From the NCBI GenBank assembly GCA_003962985.1, contig RXKA01000058.1, positions 11,051 to 75,050 of the forward strand: a stretch of 64,000 nucleotides of DNA, read 5' to 3'. This document shows, one piece after another, positions 8,350-58,503 of this stretch. The stretch comes from Pseudomonadota bacterium. Lineage in GTDB: Bacteria; Pseudomonadota; Gammaproteobacteria; Burkholderiales; UBA11063. The translations under genes and the position numbers were made by a program. The notes under the pieces were generated by a model. That model made no database searches and was not told the DNA's origin. It saw nothing but the letters and a program-made list of their open reading frames with translations. Position 1 is the first letter of the stretch; each line of letters begins with the position of its first letter.

Positions 8350-10764
<2,415 letters not shown>

Positions 10765-10878
10765 TTAAAAATCCACTTATGAATATTGTTGCGCATTTAG
10801 TATTTAAACCGTTGTACGCATAATTTTTTTAGCTGTTTTAATCAAAAACAAGCTTATTGGTAGACGACCTATCCTTTA

Positions 10879-11982
10879 TTAGGCACGTAATGGCATAATT
10901 ACATATTTGAAATTAACTTCATTTGGCACTGTTACCAACACACTGCGTTGATTATCAAAAAACGCCCATTGTAAGTTATCTTCATGGCTACTATTTAGTA
11001 CATCCATGATATATGTAATATTGAAGTTCAAACGTAATTCTGCAGAACCCTCATATTGCACAACTAATTCATCGCGTGAATCTTCTTGTTCTTCATTGCG
11101 ACAACTAATCGTTAATAAGTTCTGTTTTAATTCCAAAGTTAATGTTTTAAGCTTGTCGATACCGATTACTGCCACACGCTGTACTGACCGCAAAAATTCC
11201 TCACGATTAATTAATGCTAATTTATCATTAGTCAATGGAATTACTCGCTCATAATCAGGATATTTACCATCGATTACTTTAGAAATTAATTGTTTATTTG
11301 GCGTCTCAAAAATCACTTGGTGCGGATATAATTTGATAGTGATACTATCATCACTATCTTCTAGCAAGCGATACATTTCCAAAACCGTCTTACGTGGCAA
11401 AATCACGCTAATGTCGGGTAGTGCCTCAGTTAATGTAAACTTAACAAACCCTAAACGATGAGCATCTGTTGCTACCAAGCGTAATTCATTATTTTTAACT
11501 TCTAATAGCATCCCATTTAAAAATACTCGCGTATCATTAACTGCCATTGAGTATTGAACCTTGCTAATCAAACTACGTAACACATTCTGAGGAATAGTGA
11601 ATTTTGCAACACAATCATCATTAATGCGCAATAATGGATAATGATCGGCAGGTAGACTTTGCAAAGTAAATTTAGCTCGTCCAGCTTTGACAATAGTCTT
11701 ACTATCATTGATATCTAATGATACTTCCCCATCTGGTACCGCTTTTAAAATATCTTGGAACTTTTTCCCTGGCAATGTAATGGTAAAATCATCCCCAACC
11801 ATACCATCTTCAACAGAGAGAGTTGCTTGAATATCCATATCACTTGCAACTAGTGTAATGGTATTTCCAGATTTTTTGATGTACACATTCGACAAAATTG
11901 GCATAGTTTGTTTTTTCTCGACAAACCCAATTGCCTGTGTTAATGGCTTTAAAATAGTATCTCGCTGAAAGGTTAATAACAT
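10879..11982 (-). CDS. dnaN: DNA polymerase III beta clamp
   Basis: 367 aa; MPILSNV, VATDAHRL, GKYPDYERVIP, YVIMPLR; lies between dnaA and gyrB. Confidence 0.98.
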   Translation of the reverse strand: MLLTFQRDTILKPLTQAIGFVEKKQTMPILSNVYIKKSGNTITLVASDMDIQATLSVEDGMVGDDFTITLPGKKFQDILKAVPDGEVSLDINDSKTIVKAGRAKFTLQSLPADHYPLLRINDDCVAKFTIPQNVLRSLISKVQYSMAVNDTRVFLNGMLLEVKNNELRLVATDAHRLGFVKFTLTEALPDISVILPRKTVLEMYRLLEDSDDSITIKLYPHQVIFETPNKQLISKVIDGKYPDYERVIPLTNDKLALINREEFLRSVQRVAVIGIDKLKTLTLELKQNLLTISCRNEEQEDSRDELVVQYEGSAELRLNFNITYIMDVLNSSHEDNLQWAFFDNQRSVLVTVPNEVNFKYVIMPLRA

Positions 11983-11995
11983 AACTTACTCCACA

Positions 11996-13453
11996 TTAAT
12001 TCTGCAACATTTGCAATAATAACTTATAGTCGCGATCGATTTTCTCATCCGTATCACGTAATCCCGCAATTGTTTTTTGTGCATGTAGCACGGTTGTATG
12101 ATCTCGTCCACCAAAAGCATCCCCAATTGCAGGTAGGCTATGTTGCGTAAGTTCTTTACATAAACTCATAGCAACTTGCCGCGGACGAGTAATAATTTGC
12201 GTGCGTTTTTTTGATAATAAATCTGAAATCTTTAGTTTATAAAAATCACACACGGTCTTTTGAATATCATCAATTGAGATTATACGTGACTCACCAGCGA
12301 TAATATCAATGAGCGCTTCTTTCGCCACGCCAACAGTCAATCCAACTCGTGAAAATTTAGCATGATAAATAACTTTATTTAATGCTCCTTCTAATTCACG
12401 TACATTGGATTTAATATTTTGGGCAATAAAAAATGCAATATCATCTTCCAAATCAATTTTACTACGCAGTGCTTTATTTTTTAAGATTGCTACGCGCATT
12501 TCTAATTCTGGTGGTTGAATCTCAACCGTTAAACCAGAGGAAAAACGTGAAATCAAGCGATCATTTAAATTATCAATATTTTTAGGATAAGTATCACAAG
12601 TCATAATAACCTGTTTACCTTTTTCTAATAAATTATTGAAGGTATAAAAAAACTCTTCTTGGGTTTTTGTTCTATCCCCTGCTATGAATTGAATATCATC
12701 CATCAATAATAAATCTAGTCCGTTATAATATTTTTTGAATGCATCAAAACCATTACTCATTGAAGCCTTCACGACATCCTGAATATAATCATTAGCATGT
12801 AAATAACGAATTTTGGCATTTGGGTTCTTCCGATGAATTTCATTACCAATTGCTTGCATCAAATGCGTTTTACCCAAACCTACCCCACCATAAATAAAGA
12901 GTGGATTATGATTACGATTACCAGGTTCTTGAGTTACATGCATCCCAATTGCAACCGCTAATTGATTTGAATTACCACGGACAAATGTATCAAAGTTATA
13001 ATCTTTATTGAGCTTAGTTGACTCATGCAACTGAGCCAAAACCTGCTTATCTTGTCGCGCTTTGCTGATAATAACAGGCTTAGATTTTGCTGGAGTATCA
13101 CTTGCTTCAAGTTTGTTATCAAAACCCGCCGTAGTTTTTTTCATTGCTACAGGTTGTGATTCACTAATTTGCTCAGTATTTTGCTTGAGGTTTAAAGTTG
13201 AACGCGTTGCCGACACTACCAACTTAACGGGTACATCGCCCGTTAGCTCTAATAGTACTGGGGTAATTTTATGCCAATATTTTTTGGTCACAAAATCATA
13301 AATCAAGCGATTGGACGCAACAATCTCCAAAACACCATCTTTAACCTGCGGTTGCAATGTTTTAAGCCATGTATTAAATTCAGTTTCACTGACAATATCT
13401 TGGTCTTTCACAAGCATTAGGCACTGCTGCCATATAATTTCTAATTCTGTCAT
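11996..13453 (-). CDS. dnaA: Chromosomal replication initiator DnaA
   Basis: YNFDTFVRG, NPLFIYGGVGLGKTHL, DDIQF, NVRELEGAL and GGRDHTTVLHA; long domain II linker. Confidence 0.99.
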   Translation of the reverse strand: MTELEIIWQQCLMLVKDQDIVSETEFNTWLKTLQPQVKDGVLEIVASNRLIYDFVTKKYWHKITPVLLELTGDVPVKLVVSATRSTLNLKQNTEQISESQPVAMKKTTAGFDNKLEASDTPAKSKPVIISKARQDKQVLAQLHESTKLNKDYNFDTFVRGNSNQLAVAIGMHVTQEPGNRNHNPLFIYGGVGLGKTHLMQAIGNEIHRKNPNAKIRYLHANDYIQDVVKASMSNGFDAFKKYYNGLDLLLMDDIQFIAGDRTKTQEEFFYTFNNLLEKGKQVIMTCDTYPKNIDNLNDRLISRFSSGLTVEIQPPELEMRVAILKNKALRSKIDLEDDIAFFIAQNIKSNVRELEGALNKVIYHAKFSRVGLTVGVAKEALIDIIAGESRIISIDDIQKTVCDFYKLKISDLLSKKRTQIITRPRQVAMSLCKELTQHSLPAIGDAFGGRDHTTVLHAQKTIAGLRDTDEKIDRDYKLLLQMLQN

Positions 13454-20997: not shown

Positions 20998-22557
20998 TTA
21001 TTTGTCGTTTGCAGCTAATTCGCGCAATTCGCGTTTTAAAATTTTACCTGTCGCATTACGAGGTAGTTTCTCCATAAAATATACTTTACGAGGCTGCTTA
21101 AATGGAGCAAGCAATGGTTTCAAAAAGTCTTTAAACTCTTTCTCGGTTGCCGTTACACCCTCTTTTAATTCGACATATGCAACGGGTGTCTCGTTAGCTT
21201 CGATATCTTTTACACCAACTACAGCACACGCTTGCACTTTTTCATGTGTATAGAAAAATTCTTCAATTTCACGCGGATAGATATTCATACCTTTATTAAT
21301 AATCAAATCCTTGATACGATCAATAATAAATACATAACCATCGCTATCAATATAGCCGATATCGCCAGTTTTAAACCAACCATTCACAATAGTATCAGCA
21401 GTATCATTGGGACGATTATAATACCCAAGCATAACGCAATCACCTTGTACGCAGATTTCACCAATCTCACCACGTGGTAGCTGCTGCATATTTTCATCAA
21501 ATGTTTCTAAAACGAATGTTGGAAGTGCACGCCCCACTGAACCAAATTTATTTGCCCACGGTTGATTTAATGCCACACCAGATGCGCACTCACTAAGTCC
21601 GTATCCCTGCACTAATTTACCACGTTTGAAACTCGCACTAAACCGTTTAATTACATCGTCTGATAATGGGGCTGCCCCAGAAACCCAGCCTTTGACATTA
21701 TGAAACCAATGAAAATACCATGGTAATTTTGCGCGTGCCATGGCGCTAAATATATCAGGTACCCCCGCAAAATAGCGGCAACGATGAACTAAAAGTAATT
21801 TTAATAGATTAGCAAAATCTTTTTTAGTCGCAATACTTCTTACTATTACAACACTACTCCGACAAGCAATCGGTAACAAAATCGTTACCGCCAATGTAAA
21901 CGCATGGAACATTGGCAAATAACAAATCATTTTGGCTTGCCCATCTTTCATCCTGAAATGTTTAATTCCATTATATGCTACCGCTAATAAATTCTTAAAG
22001 CTTAACATCGCGCCCTTCGGTTTACCAGTTGTACCACTGGTATAAATAATCACCGCTAACTCATTAATATTATCGGTAACTAATTCAGAAGCACCATCGA
22101 CGGCAATAAATTTATCATAATCAAGGTTAATTTCATTCTCTAGTGGTGCACCATCTACCCAAATAATTTTTTCTGGATAAGATACCAAAGTCAGCCCAGC
22201 TACCTCTTTTGAATATTTTGCTGAAGCAAATAATAGTTTAGATTGCGAATCAGTCAATATATACGCTAATTCATCACGTTTTAAGAAATTATTTACCGGT
22301 ACTGCCACCGCACCTATTTTGGTAATCGCAAATAAATTGACGATAAATTCTGGCGAATTAGCAATTACTAACGCCACCTTATCACCACGCGTAATACCCA
22401 AATTAGCTAAAGCATTCGCAACAGTATCAACCTTACGCAAAAACTCAAGATTAGTTATTTTATTCTCACCATCGATTAATGCTGGATAACTTGGATCTTT
22501 GGATACATTTTGCAATAAAATTTCATAAAAATTATTAACTGGATAACCGCTTGACAT
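20998..22557 (-). CDS. Long-chain fatty acid--CoA ligase (paralog 1)
   Basis: YTSGTTGKPKG, QGYGLSE, GWFKTGDIG and LPRNATGKILK adenylate-forming motifs. Confidence 0.93.
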   Translation of the reverse strand: MSSGYPVNNFYEILLQNVSKDPSYPALIDGENKITNLEFLRKVDTVANALANLGITRGDKVALVIANSPEFIVNLFAITKIGAVAVPVNNFLKRDELAYILTDSQSKLLFASAKYSKEVAGLTLVSYPEKIIWVDGAPLENEINLDYDKFIAVDGASELVTDNINELAVIIYTSGTTGKPKGAMLSFKNLLAVAYNGIKHFRMKDGQAKMICYLPMFHAFTLAVTILLPIACRSSVVIVRSIATKKDFANLLKLLLVHRCRYFAGVPDIFSAMARAKLPWYFHWFHNVKGWVSGAAPLSDDVIKRFSASFKRGKLVQGYGLSECASGVALNQPWANKFGSVGRALPTFVLETFDENMQQLPRGEIGEICVQGDCVMLGYYNRPNDTADTIVNGWFKTGDIGYIDSDGYVFIIDRIKDLIINKGMNIYPREIEEFFYTHEKVQACAVVGVKDIEANETPVAYVELKEGVTATEKEFKDFLKPLLAPFKQPRKVYFMEKLPRNATGKILKRELRELAANDK

Positions 22558-29379: not shown

Positions 29380-30939
29380 TTAAGCTTTATTAATCAACTC
29401 ACGCAGCTCTCGTTTTAAAATTTTACCTGTAGCATTACGTGGTAAATGATCAATAAAAATCACTTTCCGCGGTTGTTTAAACGGTGCTAAATTAGCACGT
29501 AGAAAGTCTTTAATTTCTGCTTCTGTTGCGGTCACATCTTCTTTAAGTTCGATGTATGCAACAGGTGTTTCGTTTGCTTCCACGTCTTTTAACCCAACTA
29601 CAGCACAAGCATTGACCTTTTCATTGGTATAAATTAATTCTTCAATTTCTCGTGGATAAATATTCATACCTTTACTAATAATCAAATCTTTTTTGCGATC
29701 TAAGATAAAAATATAGCCATCCTTGTCTACTTTACCAATATCGCCAGTTTTAAACCATCCATTAACAATAGCTTCTTTCGTATCTTCAGGGCGGTTATAA
29801 TACCCCATCATCACACAACCACCTTTAACACAAATCTCACCAATCTCACCACGAGCAACTTGATTCATATCTTCATCAAAACACTCAACTTCATAAGTTG
29901 GTAATGCTTGACCAACTGAACCGATACGATTAGCCCATGGTACATTTACCGATACAACTGGTGAGCATTCACTGATACCATATCCTTGAAGTAAGGTACC
30001 ACGTTTAAAACTTGCTGAAAATTTACGAATAGTCTCTTCTGCCAATGGTGCCGCACCAGATATAAAGCCTTTAACCGAGTGAAACCAATGGAAAAACCAT
30101 GGAAGTTTAGCCTTAGCTAGTGCACTATAAACATCAGGAACTCCCACAAAATATGGAATCCGTTTAACTAACACTTGTTTAATTAATTTAGCAAAATCAC
30201 CTTTGGTTGCAATTGAACGAATAATTGTTAATCCACTATTACTCATAATTGGCAGCGTAATCGTGACAGTAAACGTAAATGCATGGAACATTGGTAGATA
30301 ACACACCATCGGAATCTTACCATGCTTAACGCGTAAATGAGCTACACAACTATTCACATTTGATAAAATATTACTAAATGAAAGCATTGCCCCTTTAGGC
30401 TTACCTGTTGTGCCAGAGGTATAGACAATCACTGCCAATTCACTAGGTGGCAAATCTGCAAATGGTGCTTGATTTGCTGGATGATTAATCAATTTATTAT
30501 ATGATATATGATTCTCATTTTCTAACGGACTACCATCTACCCAAACTATTTTCATGAGTTCTGTTTTAATGAGTTGATCGCGGACTTCTTTTTCAAATTT
30601 AGCACTGGCAAATAGCATCTTACTTTGTGAGTCATTCAGTATATATGCGATCTCATCTTCTTTAAGGAAGTTATTAATCAAAACAATTACTGCACCGACT
30701 TTATTAATAGCAAAGATATTCACCACATATTGCCAAGAATTACTCATCAGAATCGCAACCTTATCACCGACCCCAATACCTTGTGAATGTAAGTAACTCG
30801 CAACAGTATCAACTTGAGCTAGGAAACTACTATTTGAGATTTTTAGATCTTCTTCATAGATAATCGTCTTGCTTGGTGATTGTATAGCATTTAATGATGC
30901 TATGCTATAGAAATTACGGAATGAATAATTAGCTGTCAT
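29380..30939 (-). CDS. Long-chain fatty acid--CoA ligase (paralog 2)
   Basis: YTSGTTGKPKG, QGYGISE, GWFKTGDIG and LPRNATGKILK; same length (519 aa) as 20998..22557. Confidence 0.93.
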   Translation of the reverse strand: MTANYSFRNFYSIASLNAIQSPSKTIIYEEDLKISNSSFLAQVDTVASYLHSQGIGVGDKVAILMSNSWQYVVNIFAINKVGAVIVLINNFLKEDEIAYILNDSQSKMLFASAKFEKEVRDQLIKTELMKIVWVDGSPLENENHISYNKLINHPANQAPFADLPPSELAVIVYTSGTTGKPKGAMLSFSNILSNVNSCVAHLRVKHGKIPMVCYLPMFHAFTFTVTITLPIMSNSGLTIIRSIATKGDFAKLIKQVLVKRIPYFVGVPDVYSALAKAKLPWFFHWFHSVKGFISGAAPLAEETIRKFSASFKRGTLLQGYGISECSPVVSVNVPWANRIGSVGQALPTYEVECFDEDMNQVARGEIGEICVKGGCVMMGYYNRPEDTKEAIVNGWFKTGDIGKVDKDGYIFILDRKKDLIISKGMNIYPREIEELIYTNEKVNACAVVGLKDVEANETPVAYIELKEDVTATEAEIKDFLRANLAPFKQPRKVIFIDHLPRNATGKILKRELRELINKA

Positions 30940-46264: not shown

Positions 46265-47365
46265 ATGGATTTAAAAATGTTGTTACGCTATCAAATATCT
46301 GGTAGCGTGTTTATTGCTTGGTTTTTACTGTTTCATTATAGTGTGCACTCCGCTGATTTCGCAGATATGGCAACTAAAATAATGGATATTAGCAGTTTAG
46401 CAGCTCTCGTTATGGCAATTCCACTCGGTGCAATCATTCATCAATTTTCAGTTACGATAAAAAATCAAATCTTTGGGCTATGTGAAGAAAGCTATCTTAG
46501 TGATTCGCCGCTGAAAAAACCAACCAGTGCAATACTTAATTATTATGCAAATAATTTAATTGGAGATGACTCTAAAGAAATAAATCTTGAATACTTAAAA
46601 TACATTCAAGACAAAATAACTAATCTAAACTCATTTTACTATATGCGTTTTGATAATGGTTTTTTAGCACCATTGTTGGCAAGTGCTCTATTTTATTACA
46701 TTGATAGTGAGTCGCTTACGTTGTGGTGGGTTTTTTCCCTTGTTTCGTTATGTGCGATAATGTTATTATGTAATTGTACTAAAATATGTGGATGGATTAG
46801 AAAAAATAAACCATGTTATATAATAGTTGGTTTATTGTCGTTAGTAATAATTGCTTTTGGTTGTTTAGCGTATTACTCAGCTAGCCATGAAAATAAATCC
46901 AGTGTAGTACTAACTACATCGACGACACATACAGAATCCAATATTCACTATATAACGACACAAGACTATTCTTTTGAATCAGTTAGTGATACAAAGAAAG
47001 AGTCACGAATAATAGCTGATAACCTAGTAAACCCTTCCAATATTTCGGATATAAAAGATGATAACATACAAAAAGTTACCATTATTGAAAGTGAAGATAC
47101 CGCACTAAATAGCCAAACCTTTACCTGTACTACTAAATGTGCTAAATGTTCCCTTGAACTAACTTGTACAATTAGTAATGTTCGGCAACAGCAAGATAAA
47201 CTACCTCATATTGCTAAAGCTGAAATCACTAAAATTGATACAACATTATTAAACAAAATATTAATAGCTTGTTTAATTATATCAACTCTGTTATTGTCAT
47301 ATACTCCTAGGATAATTCAAGAAATAAAGGAGTACACTAAAATAATACAGCAGACTTCACCATAA
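46265..47365 (+). CDS. Hypothetical multi-pass membrane protein
   Basis: About six hydrophobic segments and one large polar loop containing CTTKCAKC; no family recognised. Confidence 0.6.
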   Translation: MDLKMLLRYQISGSVFIAWFLLFHYSVHSADFADMATKIMDISSLAALVMAIPLGAIIHQFSVTIKNQIFGLCEESYLSDSPLKKPTSAILNYYANNLIGDDSKEINLEYLKYIQDKITNLNSFYYMRFDNGFLAPLLASALFYYIDSESLTLWWVFSLVSLCAIMLLCNCTKICGWIRKNKPCYIIVGLLSLVIIAFGCLAYYSASHENKSSVVLTTSTTHTESNIHYITTQDYSFESVSDTKKESRIIADNLVNPSNISDIKDDNIQKVTIIESEDTALNSQTFTCTTKCAKCSLELTCTISNVRQQQDKLPHIAKAEITKIDTTLLNKILIACLIISTLLLSYTPRIIQEIKEYTKIIQQTSP

Positions 47366-47593: not shown

Positions 47594-48679
47594 ATGTATA
47601 TAGTAAAAAAAGCAATTAAATTTGATTTACCTATTGACGGGGTAAAAGTAAAAACAGTAGATGATTTAATGGAACATTTAACTGTAGAGTTAATAGAACA
47701 TATAAAATCAGGATTATTAGTAAAATGGTTGTTAGCGAGAGAGCCCGAACTAGCAGGAAAAATGCAAAAAATTGATATTATGGATAAGTCAGACCGTGAA
47801 ATATTAATTGCGGTTTTTGATGAGCTAGGATTCGAGACCGATGATCAAATAATTGATGCTATGTATCTAGCACATGAACAATCGCAAAATCATAGTAAAG
47901 CAGTGATCAGTCAAGAAATTTCACTTGCTAAATTAGAAAATGAACCAACTTTTGCACAGTCGCTAAATAATACTGAAGTTTTACCCGGCGATGATGTAAG
48001 TGGGCAAAATTTCTCTAACATGAATTTTTCAAATCAAAACCTTTCTGGAGTAAATTTCTCTAATTGTAATCTAAATGTATGTAATTTCGATAAAACAATC
48101 TTAAAAGGTGCTAATTTTTGTAATGCTAATATTAAAAACTCAACTTTTGAGGAAGCAGATTTACATAAAGTCCAAATGGATGCCGCAACAATAGAAAATT
48201 GTAATTTTACTAAAGTTGAATTATCAGAGGCTTCATTGTATGGCTGTATTATATCATCGTCAAACTTTCAATTAGGATGTATTCAGGGAGCTTCTCTATA
48301 TGGATCTCAAATTAGTAAATGTAATTTTAGTCAGTCTGATATGCACTCGGTCAATTTAACTGACACTGAGATTAGGCAATGTAACTTTACGTTATCTCAA
48401 TTATTATACGTTGAAATGACGCATCATGATTTTTTTTCGGGCTCACTAGAATGTGCCAAAATTTTAGTGTCAAATTTTACTGATGCGGTTATTAGCGGTA
48501 TGTTAGATTTTGGTGGTAATCATGATGATCAGGCTGAAATACTATTTGTGGCGTGTGATTTTACTAGAACAGAGATTAGCTTACGCTATACTCATTCTTG
48601 GAGCAGTCAATACTACGACGTTATTTCATCGTCGCAAATATTTGAAAAATGTGATACTCGCTCTACTATATTTTCATGA
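47594..48679 (+). CDS. Pentapeptide-repeat protein 1 with conserved N-terminal IKFxLxIDG domain
   Basis: Residues about 130-330 are (x)(N/D)(F/L)xx pentapeptides; N-terminus KKAIKFDLPIDGVKVKTVDDL..SGLLVKWL. Confidence 0.9.
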   Translation: MYIVKKAIKFDLPIDGVKVKTVDDLMEHLTVELIEHIKSGLLVKWLLAREPELAGKMQKIDIMDKSDREILIAVFDELGFETDDQIIDAMYLAHEQSQNHSKAVISQEISLAKLENEPTFAQSLNNTEVLPGDDVSGQNFSNMNFSNQNLSGVNFSNCNLNVCNFDKTILKGANFCNANIKNSTFEEADLHKVQMDAATIENCNFTKVELSEASLYGCIISSSNFQLGCIQGASLYGSQISKCNFSQSDMHSVNLTDTEIRQCNFTLSQLLYVEMTHHDFFSGSLECAKILVSNFTDAVISGMLDFGGNHDDQAEILFVACDFTRTEISLRYTHSWSSQYYDVISSSQIFEKCDTRSTIFS

Positions 48680-48835
48680 TTTTAAGAAAAATTCTGCAAT
48701 ATCTCATTTTATTATGATGGAAATAATAAAATTTAAGTTGTTGAATTTTTGTAGAAATATACAGATAAATTAAATACGATGGTAATTCATATATTATGAA
48801 TAGTGCAATTATATGAGGTCATGATAAGGAATAAA

Positions 48836-50155
48836 ATGAAAATACCTAAGAAATTAATAAAATTTAATCTTACAATAGATGGTAATATCATCAAAAATGT
48901 ACAAGATTTACAGCAACACGTATCAATTGAATTATTAGAACGTTTTAAGCAAGGCATTTTGACTAAATGGTTAAAATCTCAACCTAATACAGCGCAAATA
49001 ATCGATCAACTAGAGTGTATAAATCCAAATAATGACGAGTATGAAATTTTTATGGATGTACTACATGCGCTGAATATAAAGGGTATTGACACAAATAAAA
49101 TTCAGGGCTTATTTAACAACAAGCAATCAGATGATAAAACACAAAATGTATCACCTACAATAGCGCCAGTAACAAAACTTGGTAGCCAAAATATTGCTCC
49201 AGCAGATACTGTCAGTGGACAAAAATTTATAAATCTTGATTTTCAGAATAAAAACTTGGCAGCAGTTGATTTTTCGAATTGTATCTTTGAGAATATTGAT
49301 TTTCAAAAGGCAAACCTAACCGCCGCAAAGTTTACTAATAGCACTTTTAAACAAGTCAAGTTTAATGCTTCACAACTAACTGGAACAGATTTCACTGCTT
49401 GTAAAATTGAAGACTCGGAATTTTATAATATTAATGCAGAGAACACAAATTTCAGTAACGCTAGTATTAGCAATTCATTTTTTAATGAAGCTAAGATAAT
49501 ACAGGCTATTTTTACCAATTGCCATATTGAAGAAACATCTTTTCAACAAGCAAATATAGAGAAGAGTAATTTTACTAATAGCACTATTCAAAATGCTAAT
49601 TTCAGCCGAATTAACGCAAGAAGCACCGTATTTGAACAAAGTACAATTACACATTCTAATTTTGAGCACGCAATGCTGAATACAGCAGATTTCGCAGATG
49701 CTATTATTCAAAATTCTAATTTTTCATTAATTAGTGCAAACTATGGAATTTTCTATAATACACAAATCACTAATTCACAATTTGATACCTCCAAACTAAC
49801 AAAAGCAAACTTTGGGTCTTCAGTAATCACTAATAGTACATTCACGAATAGTGACTTAGAAAACTCAGACATGGAAAATGCTTGTTTAACCGCAGTAGAT
49901 TTTACCAAGTCCAAATTTATCGGTATAACATTAGGCTCACCAGTACAATTTGAATCAACTGGTTGTAATTATTCTGATGTAAGATTTACCACCATTGCAG
50001 AAATATTAGGACGCATCAATCGATTATACTTTGAACAAGAAATACAAAAACATCCGTTTGAGAGTATCTATAAAAAATTAAAACAAAACAATATATTTTC
50101 TGAGGATAACTTTTTTGAGCGCCCCAGAAAAAAATCACTAAAAATGGGCTGGTGA
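48836..50155 (+). CDS. Pentapeptide-repeat protein 2 with the same N-terminal domain (start ATG 48836 behind AAGGA; ORF track gives 48803)
   Basis: Long A(N/D)F pentapeptide tract; N-terminus KKLIKFNLTIDGNIIKNVQDL..QGILTKWL. Confidence 0.9.
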   Translation: MKIPKKLIKFNLTIDGNIIKNVQDLQQHVSIELLERFKQGILTKWLKSQPNTAQIIDQLECINPNNDEYEIFMDVLHALNIKGIDTNKIQGLFNNKQSDDKTQNVSPTIAPVTKLGSQNIAPADTVSGQKFINLDFQNKNLAAVDFSNCIFENIDFQKANLTAAKFTNSTFKQVKFNASQLTGTDFTACKIEDSEFYNINAENTNFSNASISNSFFNEAKIIQAIFTNCHIEETSFQQANIEKSNFTNSTIQNANFSRINARSTVFEQSTITHSNFEHAMLNTADFADAIIQNSNFSLISANYGIFYNTQITNSQFDTSKLTKANFGSSVITNSTFTNSDLENSDMENACLTAVDFTKSKFIGITLGSPVQFESTGCNYSDVRFTTIAEILGRINRLYFEQEIQKHPFESIYKKLKQNNIFSEDNFFERPRKKSLKMGW

Positions 50156-50198
50156 TAATAATTTAATCGCACAATATATTTAAGAGGTACAATTTAAC

Positions 50199-51689
50199 AT
50201 GAATACATTAGCACAAGAAATTCAAGCACATATAAATTCTCATTATCCAATTATCTATTTGATTACACAAGAAGAAGATCAAGCCAATTTATTAATTGAT
50301 CAAGTGTTAGCAGGTGATGAGCGCAAAAAAATAGAATGGAATCTAGGGTGTGGATTTGTGAATTACAAATCAGTTAATACTATTAATAGTTGGTGTAGTT
50401 TCACAGATGCCCTAGAAAATTTACTCTTACAAGATTTAGAACAACACGTAATCATTATACGAGATGCTCATGTGGCACTAACAGAACCATTAGCAGTCGC
50501 ACGCCTAAAAATGCTGGTGAATAAATTCTTTGCAAATGAGGATGCACATGTAACAATTATCATGATTGGTGCACAGGCATATATACCCCATGAACTAGAG
50601 AAATTGATTACCTTATTTGATTTACCCTTACCTAATCGAGACAAAATTAATGATATCCTGACTAAATTTGCTCATGTTTACGAAATAGAAATAGAGCAGG
50701 AAATTAAACAACGGTTAAATTATGCCCTACAAGGACTCAGTTATCAAGAAATTCTTCACCTACTAATGCAAAGTTATCAAAATGATGGCGCAATCGATGA
50801 AAATGATATCCCACTTATTCAACAACAAAAATCCCAAATTATTAAAAAAAGTGGAATCTTGGAAATGATTGAAGTACAGGATAAGTTTAGTGATATTGGA
50901 GGATTATATACATTAAAACCATGGCTAGAAAAGAAAGCCAAAATTATCAAAAACTTTACTAAAGCACAGCAATTTGGTGTTGAAGCCCCCAAAGGAGTAT
51001 TAATTGCTGGTATGCCTGGGTGTGGTAAGTCATTGACTGCCAAGGCAACGGCTGCATTATTTGAAATGCCATTATTAAAACTTGATATCGGTAGTATTAT
51101 GGGAAAATATGTTGGTGAAAGCGAAGCCAATATGCGTAAAGCGATCAAAGTTGCTGAAGCTGTTAGCCCTAGCGTGTTATGGGTCGATGAATTAGAAAAG
51201 GCATTTGTCGGAATAGGTCAAGGTAATGCAAGCTCTGAGGTAGCCACTCGTTTATTTGGTTTCTTTTTGACATGGATGCAAGAGAAAACCAGCCAAGTTT
51301 TTGTAATTGCTACTGCCAATGATATTTCTAATTTACCACCAGAATTGATGCGCAAAGGACGCTTTGATGAAGTATTTTATGTTGATTTTCCAGCACTACA
51401 AGAAAGACATGAGATATTTAAGGTTCACTTAAATAAACGCAATAAAATGAATCATAATATTTCAATTAATGAATTAGCTGAAGCAACAGAGAATTATTCA
51501 GGCGCTGATATTGAATCAATAATCAAAGAGGCAATTGAAGAATCATTCATTGATAACCAAGCGCCATTAGATACAAGGCGATTAAGGAAAGTCATCAAAG
51601 AGACCCACCCACTTGGTGAAATCATGAGCCATAAGGTTAAAGAATACAAAAAACGATTTGAAGATATGAAAATTAAATCAGCATCATAA
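50199..51689 (+). CDS. Ycf46-like AAA+ ATPase
   Basis: Degenerate N-terminal AAA ([15 protein letters not shown]) plus active AAA: Walker A GMPGCGKS, Walker B LWVDE, sensor 1 ATAN, Arg finger [15 protein letters not shown]. Confidence 0.92.
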
Positions 51690-51711
51690 TTAGTAAAAAG
51701 AGGGTTTAAAA

Positions 51712-53316
51712 ATGAACGAACAAAAATCAGTAGAAGAAAAAAATCAGATTAATGAAATTGAAATTATTGACGTAGAAGTACTAACTAATGAAGAATATCA
51801 GGAACGTCAAGCTGATATGCTAATGCAGCAAACATTTGGCAATGAAGAAAATATGCGGAAGACTTCTTCAGTTATTGCCTCATTTGTTGATTCATATGAA
51901 AAACATAAGCGAGAGTTGCCATTACAAGAATGGTTAGTTCGTGAATTCAAGAAATACCCCGATATCTGGAAAGATGAACAGGATATTACCAATACCGCAA
52001 TCGAAATAATTACTACGGTTCAAGAAGCTAAAGAGAAAAAAGAATCTCTATATGCTCATATGGATAAAGGTAAATCCAAAGAAAGTTGGTTAGCCAATGA
52101 AATTGAGAAATCAGCAAAAATTGCAGGAGCTACAAACGTTGGCGCTTATGCCGCAGAAATTGATAACGCAATAAATCAATCCAATCAAGCAATGATTGAT
52201 ACGATTGTAAACAAAGATGGCATTAGTATCAATATGGGCAGAAATCTGGATGGATTTATCGCTGAACAACACCATGTAGATACTTTTAATCTAGAAGCTG
52301 CGGCACAAGGTAGTGGTGTCAGAGCCAAAGTACTAACTCCAGATGGTGCTTATGGCAAAAACTCAATGGATATAGGTATCTATGATGAAAATGGTAAACT
52401 TGTCAGAAGATATCAAGCAAAATATGGGCAAGATGCTGATGCAACAAAAGTACTTTTTGAAAAAGGCGATTATAAAGGTCAACGTAAATTAGTACCTAGT
52501 GAACAGGTTAATAATGTTGAAGGTAGCGTTGGAGAAATTGAGTACAATGGTATAAAATCTAAACCACTATCAAAAGCAGATGCTAAAGCATTACAAGAAA
52601 AAGCTCAAATAGAGTATGAGGCTAAAAAGTATGAATGGAATGATGTTAATAGAATTAACATCGCTAAAGAAATAGGAAAAGGTGCGTTACTCGCAGCTGG
52701 TGCGACTTGTGCATTTCAAGGTGCGAGAATACTTGGGCGTAGAGTATGGAATGCTTTAACTGGTAAAGAAAATCAATCTGCTAGTGAAGATTTAAAAGAA
52801 TTTTTTGAAAGTAGCATCAAAACAGGTGCCAATGTCGGTGCAACTACAGCAGTTGCTGGTGGCGTAGTTGTTGCGGCTCGCAATGGATGGCTTGGTACGA
52901 TAGCTAAAGGTATGAAAGCAAATGTAATTACTAATGCCGTTGTTGGCGGTATAGAAAACGCTAAGATATTGTATAAATTTGCCAAAGGTGAATTAACTGG
53001 GCTTGAAGCTGCTGATGCCATGGGAACAACTACTACTAGCTTAATTGGTGGTGTATATGGATTTGAGTCTGGAGTAGCTATTGGAGCGGCAATCTGCGCT
53101 ATTGGTGGTCCTATCGGTGCAGCAATAGGAAGTATCGCAGGTGGAATAGTTGGCGGTATAGCGGGGTCTAAAATTGGCGAAAAAGTTTATCAAGCTGGTA
53201 AAGAGAGTGTAAAAACTGGTGTTACGATAGTTAAAGCAGCGGTTAAAGCTGCTGTAGAGGTTGGTAAATCTGTTGTGAATGGCATAAAAAATGTTTTTAA
53301 ATCATTGTTTAGTTGA
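51712..53316 (+). CDS. Putative PD-(D/E)XK-fold effector with C-terminal glycine-zipper membrane helices
   Basis: GFIAEQHH...MDIGI...RYQAKY fits E-D-QxK; C-terminal GxxxGxxxG helices (GAAICAIGGPIGAAIGSIAGGIVGGIAG). Confidence 0.65.
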   Translation: MNEQKSVEEKNQINEIEIIDVEVLTNEEYQERQADMLMQQTFGNEENMRKTSSVIASFVDSYEKHKRELPLQEWLVREFKKYPDIWKDEQDITNTAIEIITTVQEAKEKKESLYAHMDKGKSKESWLANEIEKSAKIAGATNVGAYAAEIDNAINQSNQAMIDTIVNKDGISINMGRNLDGFIAEQHHVDTFNLEAAAQGSGVRAKVLTPDGAYGKNSMDIGIYDENGKLVRRYQAKYGQDADATKVLFEKGDYKGQRKLVPSEQVNNVEGSVGEIEYNGIKSKPLSKADAKALQEKAQIEYEAKKYEWNDVNRINIAKEIGKGALLAAGATCAFQGARILGRRVWNALTGKENQSASEDLKEFFESSIKTGANVGATTAVAGGVVVAARNGWLGTIAKGMKANVITNAVVGGIENAKILYKFAKGELTGLEAADAMGTTTTSLIGGVYGFESGVAIGAAICAIGGPIGAAIGSIAGGIVGGIAGSKIGEKVYQAGKESVKTGVTIVKAAVKAAVEVGKSVVNGIKNVFKSLFS

Positions 53317-53323
53317 TAGAGCT

Positions 53324-53761
53324 ATGAAACCAGAATACATTGGCGAGTATGGTGAAATTGCTGTTTATAAAGAATTACTTAAACAAAATTATGAAGTATA
53401 TCGTGCAGCTAGTAAAATTCAAGAAGGCTGGGATATTGTTGTTATTAATAATGACCAAGTTATTAGAATTCAAGTAAAGACAACTATATTAGAAAATAAA
53501 AGTACTAATAATTCATTTAAGATTCATGACAACTATAATATTCTAGTGTTAGTTGTTTTATCATTGCGCGACGAAGAGCTTTCTAAACAAGATAACTTCT
53601 ATATTATGACAAAAAATGAGGTTATGAAAATACAGGGTAATAATAAACTATTAAGCACAACTAGCAGTAAAGGCGGTAAGTGTACGGTTATAAAAGAGAT
53701 ATCAGAAAATGTTAATAAATGGAATAAAATAAAGGAATTTAAAAATGGCAAAAACAATTAA
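53324..53761 (+). CDS. Small PD-(D/E)XK nuclease (start probably ATG 53324; ORF track gives 53291)
   Basis: GEYGEIAV..L...Y.V...GWDIVV....IRIQVKT. Confidence 0.78.
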   Translation: MKPEYIGEYGEIAVYKELLKQNYEVYRAASKIQEGWDIVVINNDQVIRIQVKTTILENKSTNNSFKIHDNYNILVLVVLSLRDEELSKQDNFYIMTKNEVMKIQGNNKLLSTTSSKGGKCTVIKEISENVNKWNKIKEFKNGKNN

Positions 53762-53961
53762 ATCTAATCATTAATGGTACTACTGAATGGCTACAGAATA
53801 ACTTCTGCATTGATGATGCATTAAAATTGTATGAAAATGAAATCTTATATAGATGGTTAAAGTCACGTGGATTCAATGGTTGCTTAGATAAAATCATTGA
53901 TATCAAATAACATGAAAATGGCATTAAAAATTTAATAGAGGTATTTAATGGCAATTATTAA
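53745..53961 (+). pseudogene. Frameshifted and nonsense-disrupted copy of the IKFxLxIDG domain
   Basis: ATG 53745 reads MAKTIK; another frame continues LIING..LQNNFCIDDALKLYENEILYRWLKSRGF..DKIIDIK, stop 53908-53910, then HENGIKNLIEVFN. Confidence 0.7.
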
Positions 53962-55171
53962 AACCATCGATGATATTAGGGCAAATGCAAATGAAGGTTT
54001 GATTGGACTATATTTGGATAAAAGGTTAGTAAAATGGTTAAAAAATTATAATTATTTAGATTATGCAGCACAAGTAGAGCAAATTGATTGCAACCTGAGT
54101 AGAAAAGATATTTTCTCTGAGTTAGCAAAGATTTTTGAGCTAAATATTGATGTAAACTCATTGGCTACAAGTTCAGAAGAGCAGCTTTGCAAAGCTCAAG
54201 AGTATTATGATGCATCGGATTATGAAAATGCTATGATTTGGTATACCAAAGCAGCCGAACAATACTCCGCACATGCACAGTGCTTTTTAGGATTTATGTA
54301 CTACTGTGGTGAAGGTGTAACAAAAGATCTGCAACAAGCAATTTATTGGTATACTAAAGCAGCTGAACAAGGTTATGCATATGCGCAGTATACCTTAGGA
54401 TTTATGTACTACTGTGGCGAAGGTGTAACGAAAGATCTGCAGCAAGCCTTGTATTGGTATACCCAAGCAGTTGAACAAGGTGCAGATCGTTTAAATATAG
54501 ATGAAGAGACAAAAAATAGTTGTATTAAAAATATTACTGTTATTAAGCTACAGCAAGCAAAATTAAATATGCTAATTGTCGGTGCAACAGGTTCAGGAAA
54601 AAGCACAACAATTAATGCTATATTTAATTTAGATGTTGCAACTGTCGGTGATGGAATAGATCCAGAAACAATGGATATTCAGAAGTATCAATTACACGAT
54701 AATTTAGTTCTGTGGGATACTCCAGGACTAGGAGATAGTATAGAAAAAGATAAGCAACATATCGCAAAAATAGTATCAATGTTACAAAAAAAAGATACCG
54801 ATGGAAATGCGTTAATTGATTTAGTGCTAGTTATAATTGATGCTTCTAGCAGATATATGGAAACATCTTATAGTTTAATCAATGATACCATCATCCCCAA
54901 CATGAAAGAAAAAGACAGAATTATCATAGCTCTTAATCAATGTGAAATCGCAATGAGAGGAAAAGGATTTGATTACGATAAAAATAAACCCAATCCAGAA
55001 CTATTAAATTTTTTGGAGGATAAACTAATATCGGTAAAACGTAGAATATATGAGTCATCTAATTATGATTGTAATGTTGCATATTACTCAGCTGAAACAG
55101 GATATAATGTTACTGAATTCTTTGATTTAATTATTGATAACATTCCTACTAGTAAAAGATACTTGGGATAA
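53948..55171 (+). CDS. Conserved N-domain + Sel1 repeats + small GTPase (YfjP/YeeP-like)
   Basis: N-terminal IKTIDDI..LVKWLK; Sel1 repeats LGFMYYCGEGVTKDLQQA..WYTKAAEQG; G1 GATGSGKS, G3 DTPG, G4-like NQCE. Confidence 0.85.
   Translation: MAIIKTIDDIRANANEGLIGLYLDKRLVKWLKNYNYLDYAAQVEQIDCNLSRKDIFSELAKIFELNIDVNSLATSSEEQLCKAQEYYDASDYENAMIWYTKAAEQYSAHAQCFLGFMYYCGEGVTKDLQQAIYWYTKAAEQGYAYAQYTLGFMYYCGEGVTKDLQQALYWYTQAVEQGADRLNIDEETKNSCIKNITVIKLQQAKLNMLIVGATGSGKSTTINAIFNLDVATVGDGIDPETMDIQKYQLHDNLVLWDTPGLGDSIEKDKQHIAKIVSMLQKKDTDGNALIDLVLVIIDASSRYMETSYSLINDTIIPNMKEKDRIIIALNQCEIAMRGKGFDYDKNKPNPELLNFLEDKLISVKRRIYESSNYDCNVAYYSAETGYNVTEFFDLIIDNIPTSKRYLG
54239..54478 (+). repeat. 108-bp tandem repeat encoding Sel1 units
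   Basis: tggtatac..agcag..gaacaa at 54239, 54347 and 54455; ttaggatttatgtactactgtgg at 54287 and 54395. Confidence 0.9.
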
Positions 55172-55226: not shown

Positions 55227-55877
55227 ATGAAACTAACCTATTCAACATTAAAAACCCGTCAACGCAAAGAGCGCGATGATCAACCAGAAGGACTAAAAGT
55301 TCGGGTGCATCGTGCCTTAAGTTGGCTAAATTCTGCCGAACATACAACAGATGACGATATGCGCTTTATCGCGTTATGGATATCTTTCAATGCTGCCTAT
55401 GGAGTAAATGGCGAGATTACACAAGGTAGTACAGGTGAACAATATAGCCAATTCATTGGTAAAATTATTACATTAGATAATGAGCAATTGATTTACCCGT
55501 TATTATGGCAACAATTTACCAATTCGATTCGTGTACTCCTAGATAATAAATACATCTATCAACCGTATTGGAATAATCTAAATTCAACTAAGCGTACAGA
55601 TGATTGGGAATTATCATTCCGTAATGCAAAAATTGCGGCACAAAAGATGTTATTAAATAAGGACTCGGCTGGTGTTTTAACATTAGTCTTTTCACGCTTG
55701 TATACCTTACGTAATCAGATTATTCATGGTGGAGCAAGTTGGAATAGCCGACTAAATCGCGCTCAAATTCAAGATGCCAATAACCTACTAATGAAGTTAA
55801 TCCCCGTGATTATTAAGATCATGATTGATAGCCCCCAAGAGTATTGGTCGCCAGTCAGTTACCCTGTCCAAAAATAA
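55227..55877 (+). CDS. HEPN-domain protein (putative RNase)
   Basis: RVHRALSWL, FIALWISFNAAYG and LYTLRNQIIHGG (RxxxxH). Confidence 0.85.
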   Translation: MKLTYSTLKTRQRKERDDQPEGLKVRVHRALSWLNSAEHTTDDDMRFIALWISFNAAYGVNGEITQGSTGEQYSQFIGKIITLDNEQLIYPLLWQQFTNSIRVLLDNKYIYQPYWNNLNSTKRTDDWELSFRNAKIAAQKMLLNKDSAGVLTLVFSRLYTLRNQIIHGGASWNSRLNRAQIQDANNLLMKLIPVIIKIMIDSPQEYWSPVSYPVQK

Positions 55878-57636: not shown

Positions 57637-58503
57637 ATGAACGAGTTCCAATTTGAACCCAAAATAAGAGTTAAGCTACCATCACTAATTAGTGAGATAC
57701 TAAAACAGGACAGTATTAATTTTGCGATGAATGCCAATAAGCTATGTAATACTATTTTTGCCTATTATGCAATCAATCACACCTTGCTAGAAGATGTTTC
57801 AGTCGAGGGCTGTAATAATCAGACATTGCAATTTACACTCAATAATGACAATCAAGATTTGTTTATGGCACTTTGTGACACTATCAATATCAGCACCAAA
57901 GCATTATTTTTTAGAAATCTATTTTTTCAATATTGCAATCAACCGATCTATGTACGTGAGCAAATTATCTATAATTCATCGTATCAGATGTTATTAAATG
58001 CAATCAAGGCACGTCGGAAGCTAAAAATTCGTTATAAAAATAGCTATCGTATAATCGAGCCATATTTCATTATCAAATCAGATGGTGAAACCCGTAATTA
58101 TGTTTTTGCTTATTGCGATAGCCAACAACGCTATTGCAATTATCGGCTAAGTAATATCCATGCCGTAGGAATCATAACCAAAGTACCTTTTGAGCATTAT
58201 GATGAGGAATACATTAAAACAATGCACCGTAATTTTGATGCATTTTTGTCTTATGGACAAACAATCCAAGTGCGTCTGGATGAGATTGGTCAGCAGATGT
58301 TCCAACGTAATCTGACTCATCGCCCCAAATTACTCAATCATCAAAATGATATTTTTGAACTTGAATGTTCACAGCTCAAAGCGCAATTGTATTTCCCTCA
58401 ATTTATGCATCATGCTGAAATATTATCACCGCCAGAATTACGCACATGGTTCCATGACCAATTTACCGCAGTCTATACTATGTATACAAAAGACGCAGGT
58501 TAG
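57637..58503 (+). CDS. WYL-domain regulator with tandem N-terminal RHH-like units
   Basis: LKIRY....RIIEPYFI...RNYVFAYC....RYCNYRLSNI (WYL) and C-terminal WCX (AEILSPPELR); N-terminal beta-alpha-alpha x2. Confidence 0.88.
   Translation: MNEFQFEPKIRVKLPSLISEILKQDSINFAMNANKLCNTIFAYYAINHTLLEDVSVEGCNNQTLQFTLNNDNQDLFMALCDTINISTKALFFRNLFFQYCNQPIYVREQIIYNSSYQMLLNAIKARRKLKIRYKNSYRIIEPYFIIKSDGETRNYVFAYCDSQQRYCNYRLSNIHAVGIITKVPFEHYDEEYIKTMHRNFDAFLSYGQTIQVRLDEIGQQMFQRNLTHRPKLLNHQNDIFELECSQLKAQLYFPQFMHHAEILSPPELRTWFHDQFTAVYTMYTKDAG

Follow-up and report, generated by a model that had tools for sequence, protein, structure and literature searches.

The DNA considered here is a stretch of 64,000 nucleotides (nt) from a Pseudomonadota bacterium of the Burkholderiales UBA11063 (contig RXKA01000058.1 of GCA_003962985.1, positions 11,051-75,050, forward strand), the whole of which is called the window. 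It carries four copies of one N-terminal domain, named the head in this paper, on different C-terminal tails, and these copies lie beside the genes of an AAA+ ATPase and of a 534-amino-acid (aa) protein with a glycine-zipper C-terminus, which together constitute the core. The head represents a widespread domain family that is absent from the libraries searched, and on balance it appears to be the coupling module of a conserved three-part system consisting of head-plus-tail proteins, a CDC48-like AAA+ ATPase and the 534-aa glycine-zipper protein. This reading fits best because the genes are linked, whole cassettes are duplicated together, the number of head genes per core varies and the head genes turn over between strains.

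The original prediction, made by eye from the sequence, was that an N-terminal domain of about 80 aa is reused on four open reading frames (ORFs), here called A, B, C and D, and the strings quoted for all four segments are located in the sequence where they had been placed. In Smith-Waterman alignments compared with 2,000 shuffles, the pairs A-B (z=22), B-D (z=8.8), B-C (z=6.8), A-D (z=4.9) and A-C (z=3.5) are related, and the C-D pair alone is not significant (z=1.9). Furthermore, a hidden Markov model (HMM) of 152 domain segments from outside proteins, with the window's own protein excluded, was run with all filters off on every stop-to-stop stretch in the six frames of the 64 kb; the outside segments had initially been recruited by a profile that contained the window's segments. 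This external HMM matches A (E=7e-25, HMM positions 2-92), B (5e-20, 2-91), D (1.9e-12, 16-89) and C (5.4e-9, 7-58), the next match having an E-value of 0.58, and it finds no fifth head copy in any of the six frames. Because it links all four segments and nothing else in the window, they belong to one family, and the shared N-terminal domain of the four ORFs is thereby borne out, with the correction that the domain is about 90-95 aa long. The tails are also as described, that is, pentapeptide repeats twice and Sel1 repeats with a GTPase once: PF00805 scores 79.3 and 93.2 bits on the tails of A and B (cut-off 20.2), PF13599 scores 67.5 and 114.1 bits (cut-off 38), and the tail of D consists of two Sel1 repeats and a GTPase of the MMR_HSR1/AIG1 type according to Pfam. 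Between 46.2 and 55.9 kb every long ORF is on the + strand and the gaps are short; the genes of this row and a nearby regulator candidate are as follows.

46265..47365, + strand: 366-aa multi-pass membrane protein, possible accessory, first in the row; weak matches to BA5345_fam and to the PADLOC "1TM effector", no match in Pfam
47594..48679, + strand: gene A, 361 aa, head (aa 1-98, nt 47594-47887) and pentapeptide repeats (Pfam Pentapeptide, 1.4e-22)
48836..50155, + strand: gene B, 439 aa from the ATG, head (aa 1-97, nt 48836-49126) and a long pentapeptide-repeat region (Pentapeptide_4, 3e-33)
50199..51689, + strand: 496-aa AAA+ ATPase (Pfam AAA, 1.2e-29, and AAA_lid_3)
51712..53316, + strand: 534-aa core partner with glycine-zipper C-terminus (AlphaFold2 model and alignment of homologues)
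53291..53761, + strand: 156-aa PD-(D/E)XK-family protein, variable accessory (PF11645 PDDEXK_5, 1.1e-7); the gene overlaps the end of the 534-aa gene and is missing from most other loci
53745..53910, + strand: C, relic of a head-domain gene
53948..55171, + strand: gene D, 407 aa, head without its first strand (aa 1-78, nt 53948-54181), two Sel1 repeats (1.9e-24) and a GTPase (MMR_HSR1, 2.2e-12)
55227..55877, + strand: 216-aa protein, family unassigned, starting 56 nt after D, membership of the unit uncertain
57637..58503, + strand: 288-aa WYL-domain protein, candidate regulator (PF13280, 4e-9; PADLOC WYL, 8e-20)

The start of B is most likely the ATG at 48836, which gives MKIPKK, and its orthologue in the sister strain L029 also starts at MKIPKK; the GTG at 48803, which the ORF list had used, is less likely.

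The head family is large. With the segments and the four first homologues combined into a profile, an exhaustive HMMER search through 1.84 billion representative proteins gives 2,303 clusters at 50% identity with E<=1e-3 and 724 with E<=1e-10; a word-indexed homology search with the four segments gives 5 proteins only. In the top 150 proteins the head starts within 5 residues of the N-terminus in 148 cases, occurs in two or three tandem copies in 25 and makes up essentially the whole protein in 13. Hardly any variation is seen at the residues K, I, K, F, L and G in IKFDLPIDG, which forms a strand-turn-strand, at one L of the helix that follows it, and at the residues G, L, W and L in SGLLxKWL; the IKFDLPIDG N-terminal strand is the best conserved part. 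The AlphaFold2 model, calculated from a 60-sequence alignment, predicts a short β-hairpin followed by six helices with moderate confidence (predicted local distance difference test, pLDDT, 76). It has no Foldseek relative in PDB or BFVD (best E-values 3.4 and 0.9), and a sequence-profile search of PDB also gives no relative of the head. In addition, no Pfam-A model matches residues 1-100 of A, B or D at E<=0.01, scans of NCBIfam, PADLOC and PHROGs give no model for the head region, and full-text searches of the literature found no paper describing the head domain or the cassette.

The tails, on the other hand, are highly diverse. Among the top 150 proteins Pfam recognizes Lcl_C (6 proteins), FGE-sulfatase (5), pentapeptide repeats (4), Sel1 (3), LRV (2) and Biotin_lipoyl (1), as well as GTPases of the Dynamin_N/MMR_HSR1/AIG1 type, and it gives no match for most of the tails. 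All-against-all BLAST divides the 124 tails of at least 80 aa into 48 unrelated clusters. Because of this diversity across the top 150 proteins, one head with interchangeable tails is a property of the whole family, so the constant head on exchangeable tails which had been noticed in the window holds in a large family as well. Listing the C-terminal fusions and the neighbours with an HMM, a check proposed at the outset, thus yields 48 or more unrelated tail families among these 150 proteins together with linkage to the AAA+ gene.

This linkage was examined in 25 loci which were collected through the head alone. In 20 of them a full-length homologue of the ATPase (43-59% identity) and/or a homologue of the 534-aa protein is adjacent to the head gene. 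Species-representative genomes hold both the ATPase (44-59%) and the 534-aa (41-55%) homologues within 10 kb in 10 of 13 distinct regions; metagenome contigs, which are mostly short, have one or both core genes adjacent in six of eight cases; and all four contigs with divergent members of the head family have the ATPase. In these loci the head genes are therefore consistently linked to the AAA+ gene, as the original prediction had it under the name of a Ycf46-like ATPase, and do not occur mainly apart from it. The commonest order is head gene or genes, AAA+ gene and 534-aa gene, and the 534-aa gene comes first in some loci. The number of genes varies around this pattern: a minimal cassette consists of a 168-aa head protein, the ATPase and a 536-aa protein between mnmE and a MaoC-dehydratase-domain gene, the divergent locus L018 has five head genes in series after the ATPase gene, and Chromatium okenii has the three-gene cassette in tandem repeats. 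The locus tags of the head protein (IVG45_19020) and of the 534-aa homologue (IVG45_19025) follow each other directly in Methylomonas sp. LL1. The named members of both families are all annotated as "hypothetical" except for one "predicted GTPase" and some 534-aa homologues called "glycine zipper domain-containing".

Several other genes adjoin the cassette. WYL genes do so in three otherwise different loci (window 57637-58503, L017 2058-2906 and L030 368-1318); the WYL and AAA+ genes of L030 share 4 nt at the start of the latter, an overlap that points to a dedicated regulator. Occasional neighbours are a Type ISP restriction enzyme, found beside the cassette in L006, and a faint Zeta-toxin-like match. 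ORFs of 548-582 aa without a Pfam match lie between the 534-aa and head genes in L005 (6116-8139), L011 (7914-9982) and L009 (8256-10001); they are preceded by a 125-aa ORF in L005 and L011, that of L005 having no Pfam match, and by a 234-aa ORF in L009. Compared by position only, the 548-582-aa ORFs may be a subtype-specific extra component. In one of the tandem cassettes of C. okenii (L002, 16798-19845) the AAA+ and 534-aa genes are split by frameshifts into several ORFs, which could be decay or an assembly error; the 534-aa gene of the neighbouring cassette is intact.

The ATPase is composed of an N-domain of about 220 aa, for which no match was found, and one ATPase module, and it ends in ...KxAS. 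PF00004 matches it with 103.8 bits, together with AAA_lid_3, and among PDB entries it comes closest to the D2 modules of VAT, CDC48 and p97. Walker A (GMPGCGKS), the pore loop KYVG, Walker B (DELE), sensor 1 and the arginine pair of RKGRFD are invariant in 14 orthologues, so that by all motif criteria the enzyme is an AAA+ of the classical clade (CDC48/FtsH/PAN type). Its sole full-length family match is phrog_8638, of unknown function (2.5e-116), and in GenBank phages tblastn gives at best 33-34% identity over no more than 76% of the query, the first 80-105 residues of which are left unmatched. As a side observation, ...K-x-A-S stands at or near the C-terminus in 14 of 14 orthologues (51675-51689 in the window), six of which extend 1-10 residues beyond AS; this end could serve as a docking tail, since the HbYX motif of proteasomal ATPases has a similar position.

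The 534-aa protein belongs to a family of at least 772 homologous clusters, all labelled hypothetical or glycine-zipper, and has no match in Pfam, in PDB sequences or, as a full-length model, in Foldseek. Its AlphaFold2 model (pLDDT 66) predicts a helical N-domain, a central α-β-β-β-α-β unit and C-terminal glycine-rich helices, to which the Gly-zipper_Omp and C19orf12 models weakly match in some homologues; it is a probable membrane protein, judging from these helices. The central unit (helix 179-198, strands 204-208, 219-224 and 230-236, helix 242-250 and strand 258-260) contains the invariant residues E185, H188, D220 and Q235-x-K237, and in predicted topology and residue pattern residues 179-260 may resemble a PD-(D/E)XK nuclease core. 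Neither of the two core proteins contains a head: the external HMM finds none in either, and hhalign of the head profile against the profile of the ATPase or of the 534-aa protein gives a probability below 1% in both cases, so the idea that a core protein also bears a head was rejected. Since the core proteins are without a head, any coupling would have to be heterotypic.

The head-bearing genes change between close relatives. The sister strain L029 has 93-95% nucleotide identity with the window over the shared genes, and both have the membrane protein, B, the ATPase, the 534-aa protein, the C relic and D. Gene A, however, is missing from L029. There, B and the ATPase gene are separated by an additional head+Sel1 gene of 403 aa, the head of which is 48.5% identical to that of A. 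The B orthologue is 91% identical, and the PD-(D/E)XK-like gene at the same position is only 32% identical. The membrane-protein orthologue of L029 (119-1585; 69% aa identity) is fused to a pentapeptide tail to give 488 aa, whereas the window copy has no such tail, so that pentapeptide tails occur on two different heads at this locus. From one close strain to another, therefore, the core stays the same, and it is the head-bearing and accessory genes that vary.

The copies in the window are in different states. The heads of A and B are complete. C, which had been read as broken, is indeed a frameshifted and truncated relic: an extra A in a run of five A (GCAAAAACA) shifts the frame after MAKTIK, and dropping one A from the run gives MAKQLNLIING from its ATG. 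It lacks the last two C-terminal helices of the head, and it has decayed in L029 too, where the ATG is changed to AAG. D had been counted as the fourth head; it is homologous, but it is more than a divergent copy, because 15 codons (IKKIIKFDLIINEQM) have been lost in frame relative to the 94%-identical orthologue. That orthologue in L029 (P0283) has 422 aa and an intact head with the N-terminus MTIIKKIIKFDLIINEQMIKTIDD. The deletion comprises exactly 45 nt at about 53956/53957 (window 53948-53960 against L029 8146-8210), is flanked by short direct repeats (ATTATTAAAA / ATGATTAAAA) and removes the first strand with the KFDL motif, the most conserved strand of the head, while the frame is kept. 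A first strand of D encoded upstream in another frame ("FNGNY") was also considered and rejected, since those nucleotides are the ones coding for MAIIKT and the comparison with L029 shows a clean in-frame deletion instead. Contigs from four independent sequencing runs have zero indels across 53300-54085; because they agree with the window, the lesions in C and D are real alleles, and homopolymer sequencing errors were rejected as their cause. The undeleted D allele is present in another public run, X16. The deletion in D and the intact orthologue are therefore natural test alleles, the former a ready-made loss-of-coupling allele if the head couples as proposed.

The homologous heads, the diverse tails, the linkage of the genes, their turnover from strain to strain and the lack of a head on the core proteins are observed; what we infer from them is physical binding, its partner, the direction of signalling and a role in defence. 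The system would combine one or several head-plus-tail proteins with a CDC48-like AAA+ ATPase, which has one ring and an intact pore loop, and with the 534-aa protein and its glycine-zipper membrane region, and the head would dock each variable protein onto this constant core. By analogy with the cofactors of CDC48, the likeliest docking site would be the N-domain of about 220 aa of the ATPase hexamer, the 534-aa protein being the alternative partner. Docking of this kind would let tails be gained, lost and exchanged with the machine unchanged. The tails, which are ligand-binding repeats (pentapeptide, Sel1, FGE-sulfatase/lectin-like, Lcl_C and LRV) or GTPases, would most likely serve a conflict or stress system as its sensors or effectors, with the ATPase remodelling the complex and the glycine-zipper protein providing a membrane-directed output. 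A role in defence or stress is plausible because the tail repertoire overlaps with that of known conflict systems, WYL genes recur and Type ISP or Zeta-toxin-like neighbours occur occasionally. More tentatively, the head, the CDC48-like AAA+ and the glycine-zipper protein could make up a widespread, undescribed modular immune or stress system of Proteobacteria, in which heterotypic docking plugs sensors and effectors into an unfoldase-driven membrane effector, that is, a bacterial counterpart of the p97-cofactor logic for defence; this wider proposal is possible rather than probable.

Some points weigh against a docking module in a defence system. The defence context is anecdotal, and the minimal cassette lies among housekeeping genes; no PADLOC model fits the cassette, and the weak IetA match spans the ATPase module only. 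Head genes in L003, L007 and L008 have no core nearby within the 8-10 kb flank on each side; in favour of the linkage, L007 and L008 are from C. okenii assemblies with cassettes on other contigs. The sampled loci are mostly of the IKFDLPID subfamily from Beta- and Gammaproteobacteria, with four loci for the divergent members, since a narrower alignment was used as the query of the locus search and biased it to one subfamily. The head model is only moderately confident, and because the predicted fold matches nothing, the structure yields no functional hint. No head relative was found in GenBank phages by tblastn or, for the IKFDLPID subfamily only, by a pattern scan of IMG/VR. Moreover, the strict N-terminal position suits a threading or export tag as well as an adaptor.

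The original prediction had left a plug-in adaptor, a degron and an oligomerization hub side by side; the homologous head on unrelated tails and the linkage to the ATPase agree with the adaptor, and the degron and the homotypic hub fare less well. A classical proteolytic degron is disfavoured because no recognizable peptidase is found in the conserved cassette. There is, however, a related possibility that the head is a tag for recognition and unfolding, so that the head proteins would be not docked adaptors but substrates, of which the AAA+ takes hold at the N-terminus in order to unfold, disassemble or inactivate them. The placement of the head at the very N-terminus (148 of 150 proteins), the N-terminal strand IKFDLPIDG as the most conserved part and the intact KYVG pore loop, typical of translocating unfoldases, all agree with this. 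The head is nevertheless predicted to be a folded domain of 90 aa and not a short peptide, the second and third tandem copies are internal, the head-only proteins would be substrates without cargo, and no peptidase is recognized in the conserved cassette, although the 534-aa partner without a family match could hide a hydrolase. Such a tag is considered unlikely.

Export or trafficking is a further possibility, in which the AAA+ would unfold the variable proteins and feed them into a membrane conduit formed by the glycine-zipper protein, as in the delivery of polymorphic effectors. A constant N-terminal module on highly variable C-terminal cargo, turnover at the strain level and a core that includes a probable membrane protein would suit this function, and cargo types such as Sel1, pentapeptide repeats, GTPases and Lcl_C resemble those of secreted effectors. 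But no immunity-like genes come after the cargo genes, the cassette has no conserved component of an outer-membrane or other secretion apparatus, most tails consist of binding repeats and not of toxins, the hosts are free-living oxidizers of sulfur, iron and methane, and the glycine-zipper hairpin is small for a protein conduit; export is thus decidedly improbable. Loci with more than one head gene, the highest number being five in L018, and the tandem copies inside one protein also bring to mind a homotypic oligomerization hub, by which the variable proteins would multimerize while the linkage to the AAA+ would be only regulatory, and the effector-associated and Death-like domains are a precedent (PMC7159879). 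Homotypic contacts, however, could not recruit a core without a head, so a hub of this kind joined to the core is disfavoured; the minimal cassette has a single head protein, and the tight and conserved order of head gene followed by AAA+ gene argues for a direct functional link. This makes the hub very unlikely. The coupling module thus remains the preferred reading.

Among known systems, the closest in logic are the principle of effector-associated domains (EADs) and that of UBX-type p97 cofactors. Kaur, Burroughs, Iyer and Aravind (2020, PMC7159879) described NTPase-centred conflict systems with EAD1-11 and bDLD, the effectors of which include FGS, pentapeptide and Sel1 proteins and AIG-type GTPases. 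As in the EAD systems, a small non-enzymatic terminal domain is present here in many paralogues on varied tails (FGS, pentapeptide, Sel1/TPR and AIG-type GTPases), the genes lie beside an NTPase-centred core with extra copies elsewhere in the genome, and they vary rapidly among close relatives. The head has about 90 aa, is N-terminal in 148 of 150 proteins, and has at least 48 tail clusters and two to five head genes per locus. EADs, however, are homotypic, the same domain being found on a core component, whereas neither core protein bears the head here; their cores are MoxR-vWA, STAND or GTPase proteins, whereas the present one is a classical-clade AAA+ with a glycine-zipper protein; and the hosts sampled are, unlike those of EAD systems, mostly unicellular Beta- and Gammaproteobacteria. 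EAD models are included in Pfam, and no Pfam model matches the head. UBX-type cofactors share a constant module of about 80-90 aa, which is found on unrelated proteins and docks on the N-domain of a CDC48-type hexamer. The head, as a constant module of about 90 aa on unrelated tails beside an ATPase closest to the D2 modules of CDC48 and VAT, would be a functional analogue of them. UBX is, however, a β-grasp fold and usually C-terminal, whereas the head is predicted to be a β-hairpin with six helices and is strictly N-terminal; Foldseek matches the head model to no entry of the PDB at E<=0.001, the head shows no similarity to UBX in sequence or fold, and the ATPase, unlike p97/CDC48, is single-ring with an unrelated N-domain. 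Because the homotypic feature of EADs and the fold of UBX fail, the cassette is filed under neither.

The IetAS (IteA) anti-phage system also has an AAA+ of the same broad clade as its core, and the PADLOC IetA models match the ATPase module with 9e-28. However, NF042959 (NCBIfam IteA) scores 80.9 bits against a cut-off of 510 and on the ATPase module only, the cassette has no IetS-type protease and IetAS has no family of head-bearing proteins, so the identification of the cassette as IetAS was rejected, the score being far under the cut-off and the protease missing. Polymorphic toxin and effector loci are similar in their constant heads, hypervariable tails, tandem arrays of paralogues and cassette turnover from strain to strain. 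Unlike in those loci, no toxin domains, immunity genes or known secretion apparatus were recognized here, and the partners are a cytoplasmic AAA+ and a glycine-zipper protein.

If the head is a docking module for a CDC48-like unfoldase, a large domain family (more than 2,000 clusters at 50% identity) outside the libraries searched would be defined, together with a three-gene system whose named members are annotated as hypothetical. The adaptor principle of effector-associated and Death-like domains and of p97 cofactors would then be extended to a new bacterial core with heterotypic coupling. In addition, the head is a simple handle for finding the variable components of the system in genomes, and the ligands of the tails, once identified, could reveal new sensors or effectors.

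The host of the window is an uncultured betaproteobacterium of low guanine + cytosine content (~34%) from a freshwater metagenome, and its best named relative by GyrB is a metagenome-assembled genome of the Burkholderiales with 76% identity. The 216-aa protein after D has no match in Pfam, NCBIfam or PHROG; it holds LRNQIIHG, an Rx4H motif of the HEPN kind as read from the sequence only, and may be a further accessory effector. The window is chromosomal, with dnaA and gyrB at 8-13.5 kb; gyrB, probably dnaN, and dnaA occupy 8350-13453, so the window adjoins the chromosomal replication origin, and the cassette is about 35 kb distant from dnaA. Furthermore, two paralogous genes of long-chain-fatty-acid--CoA ligases, of 519 aa each, are found on the - strand at 20998-22557 and 29380-30939, 7 kb apart.

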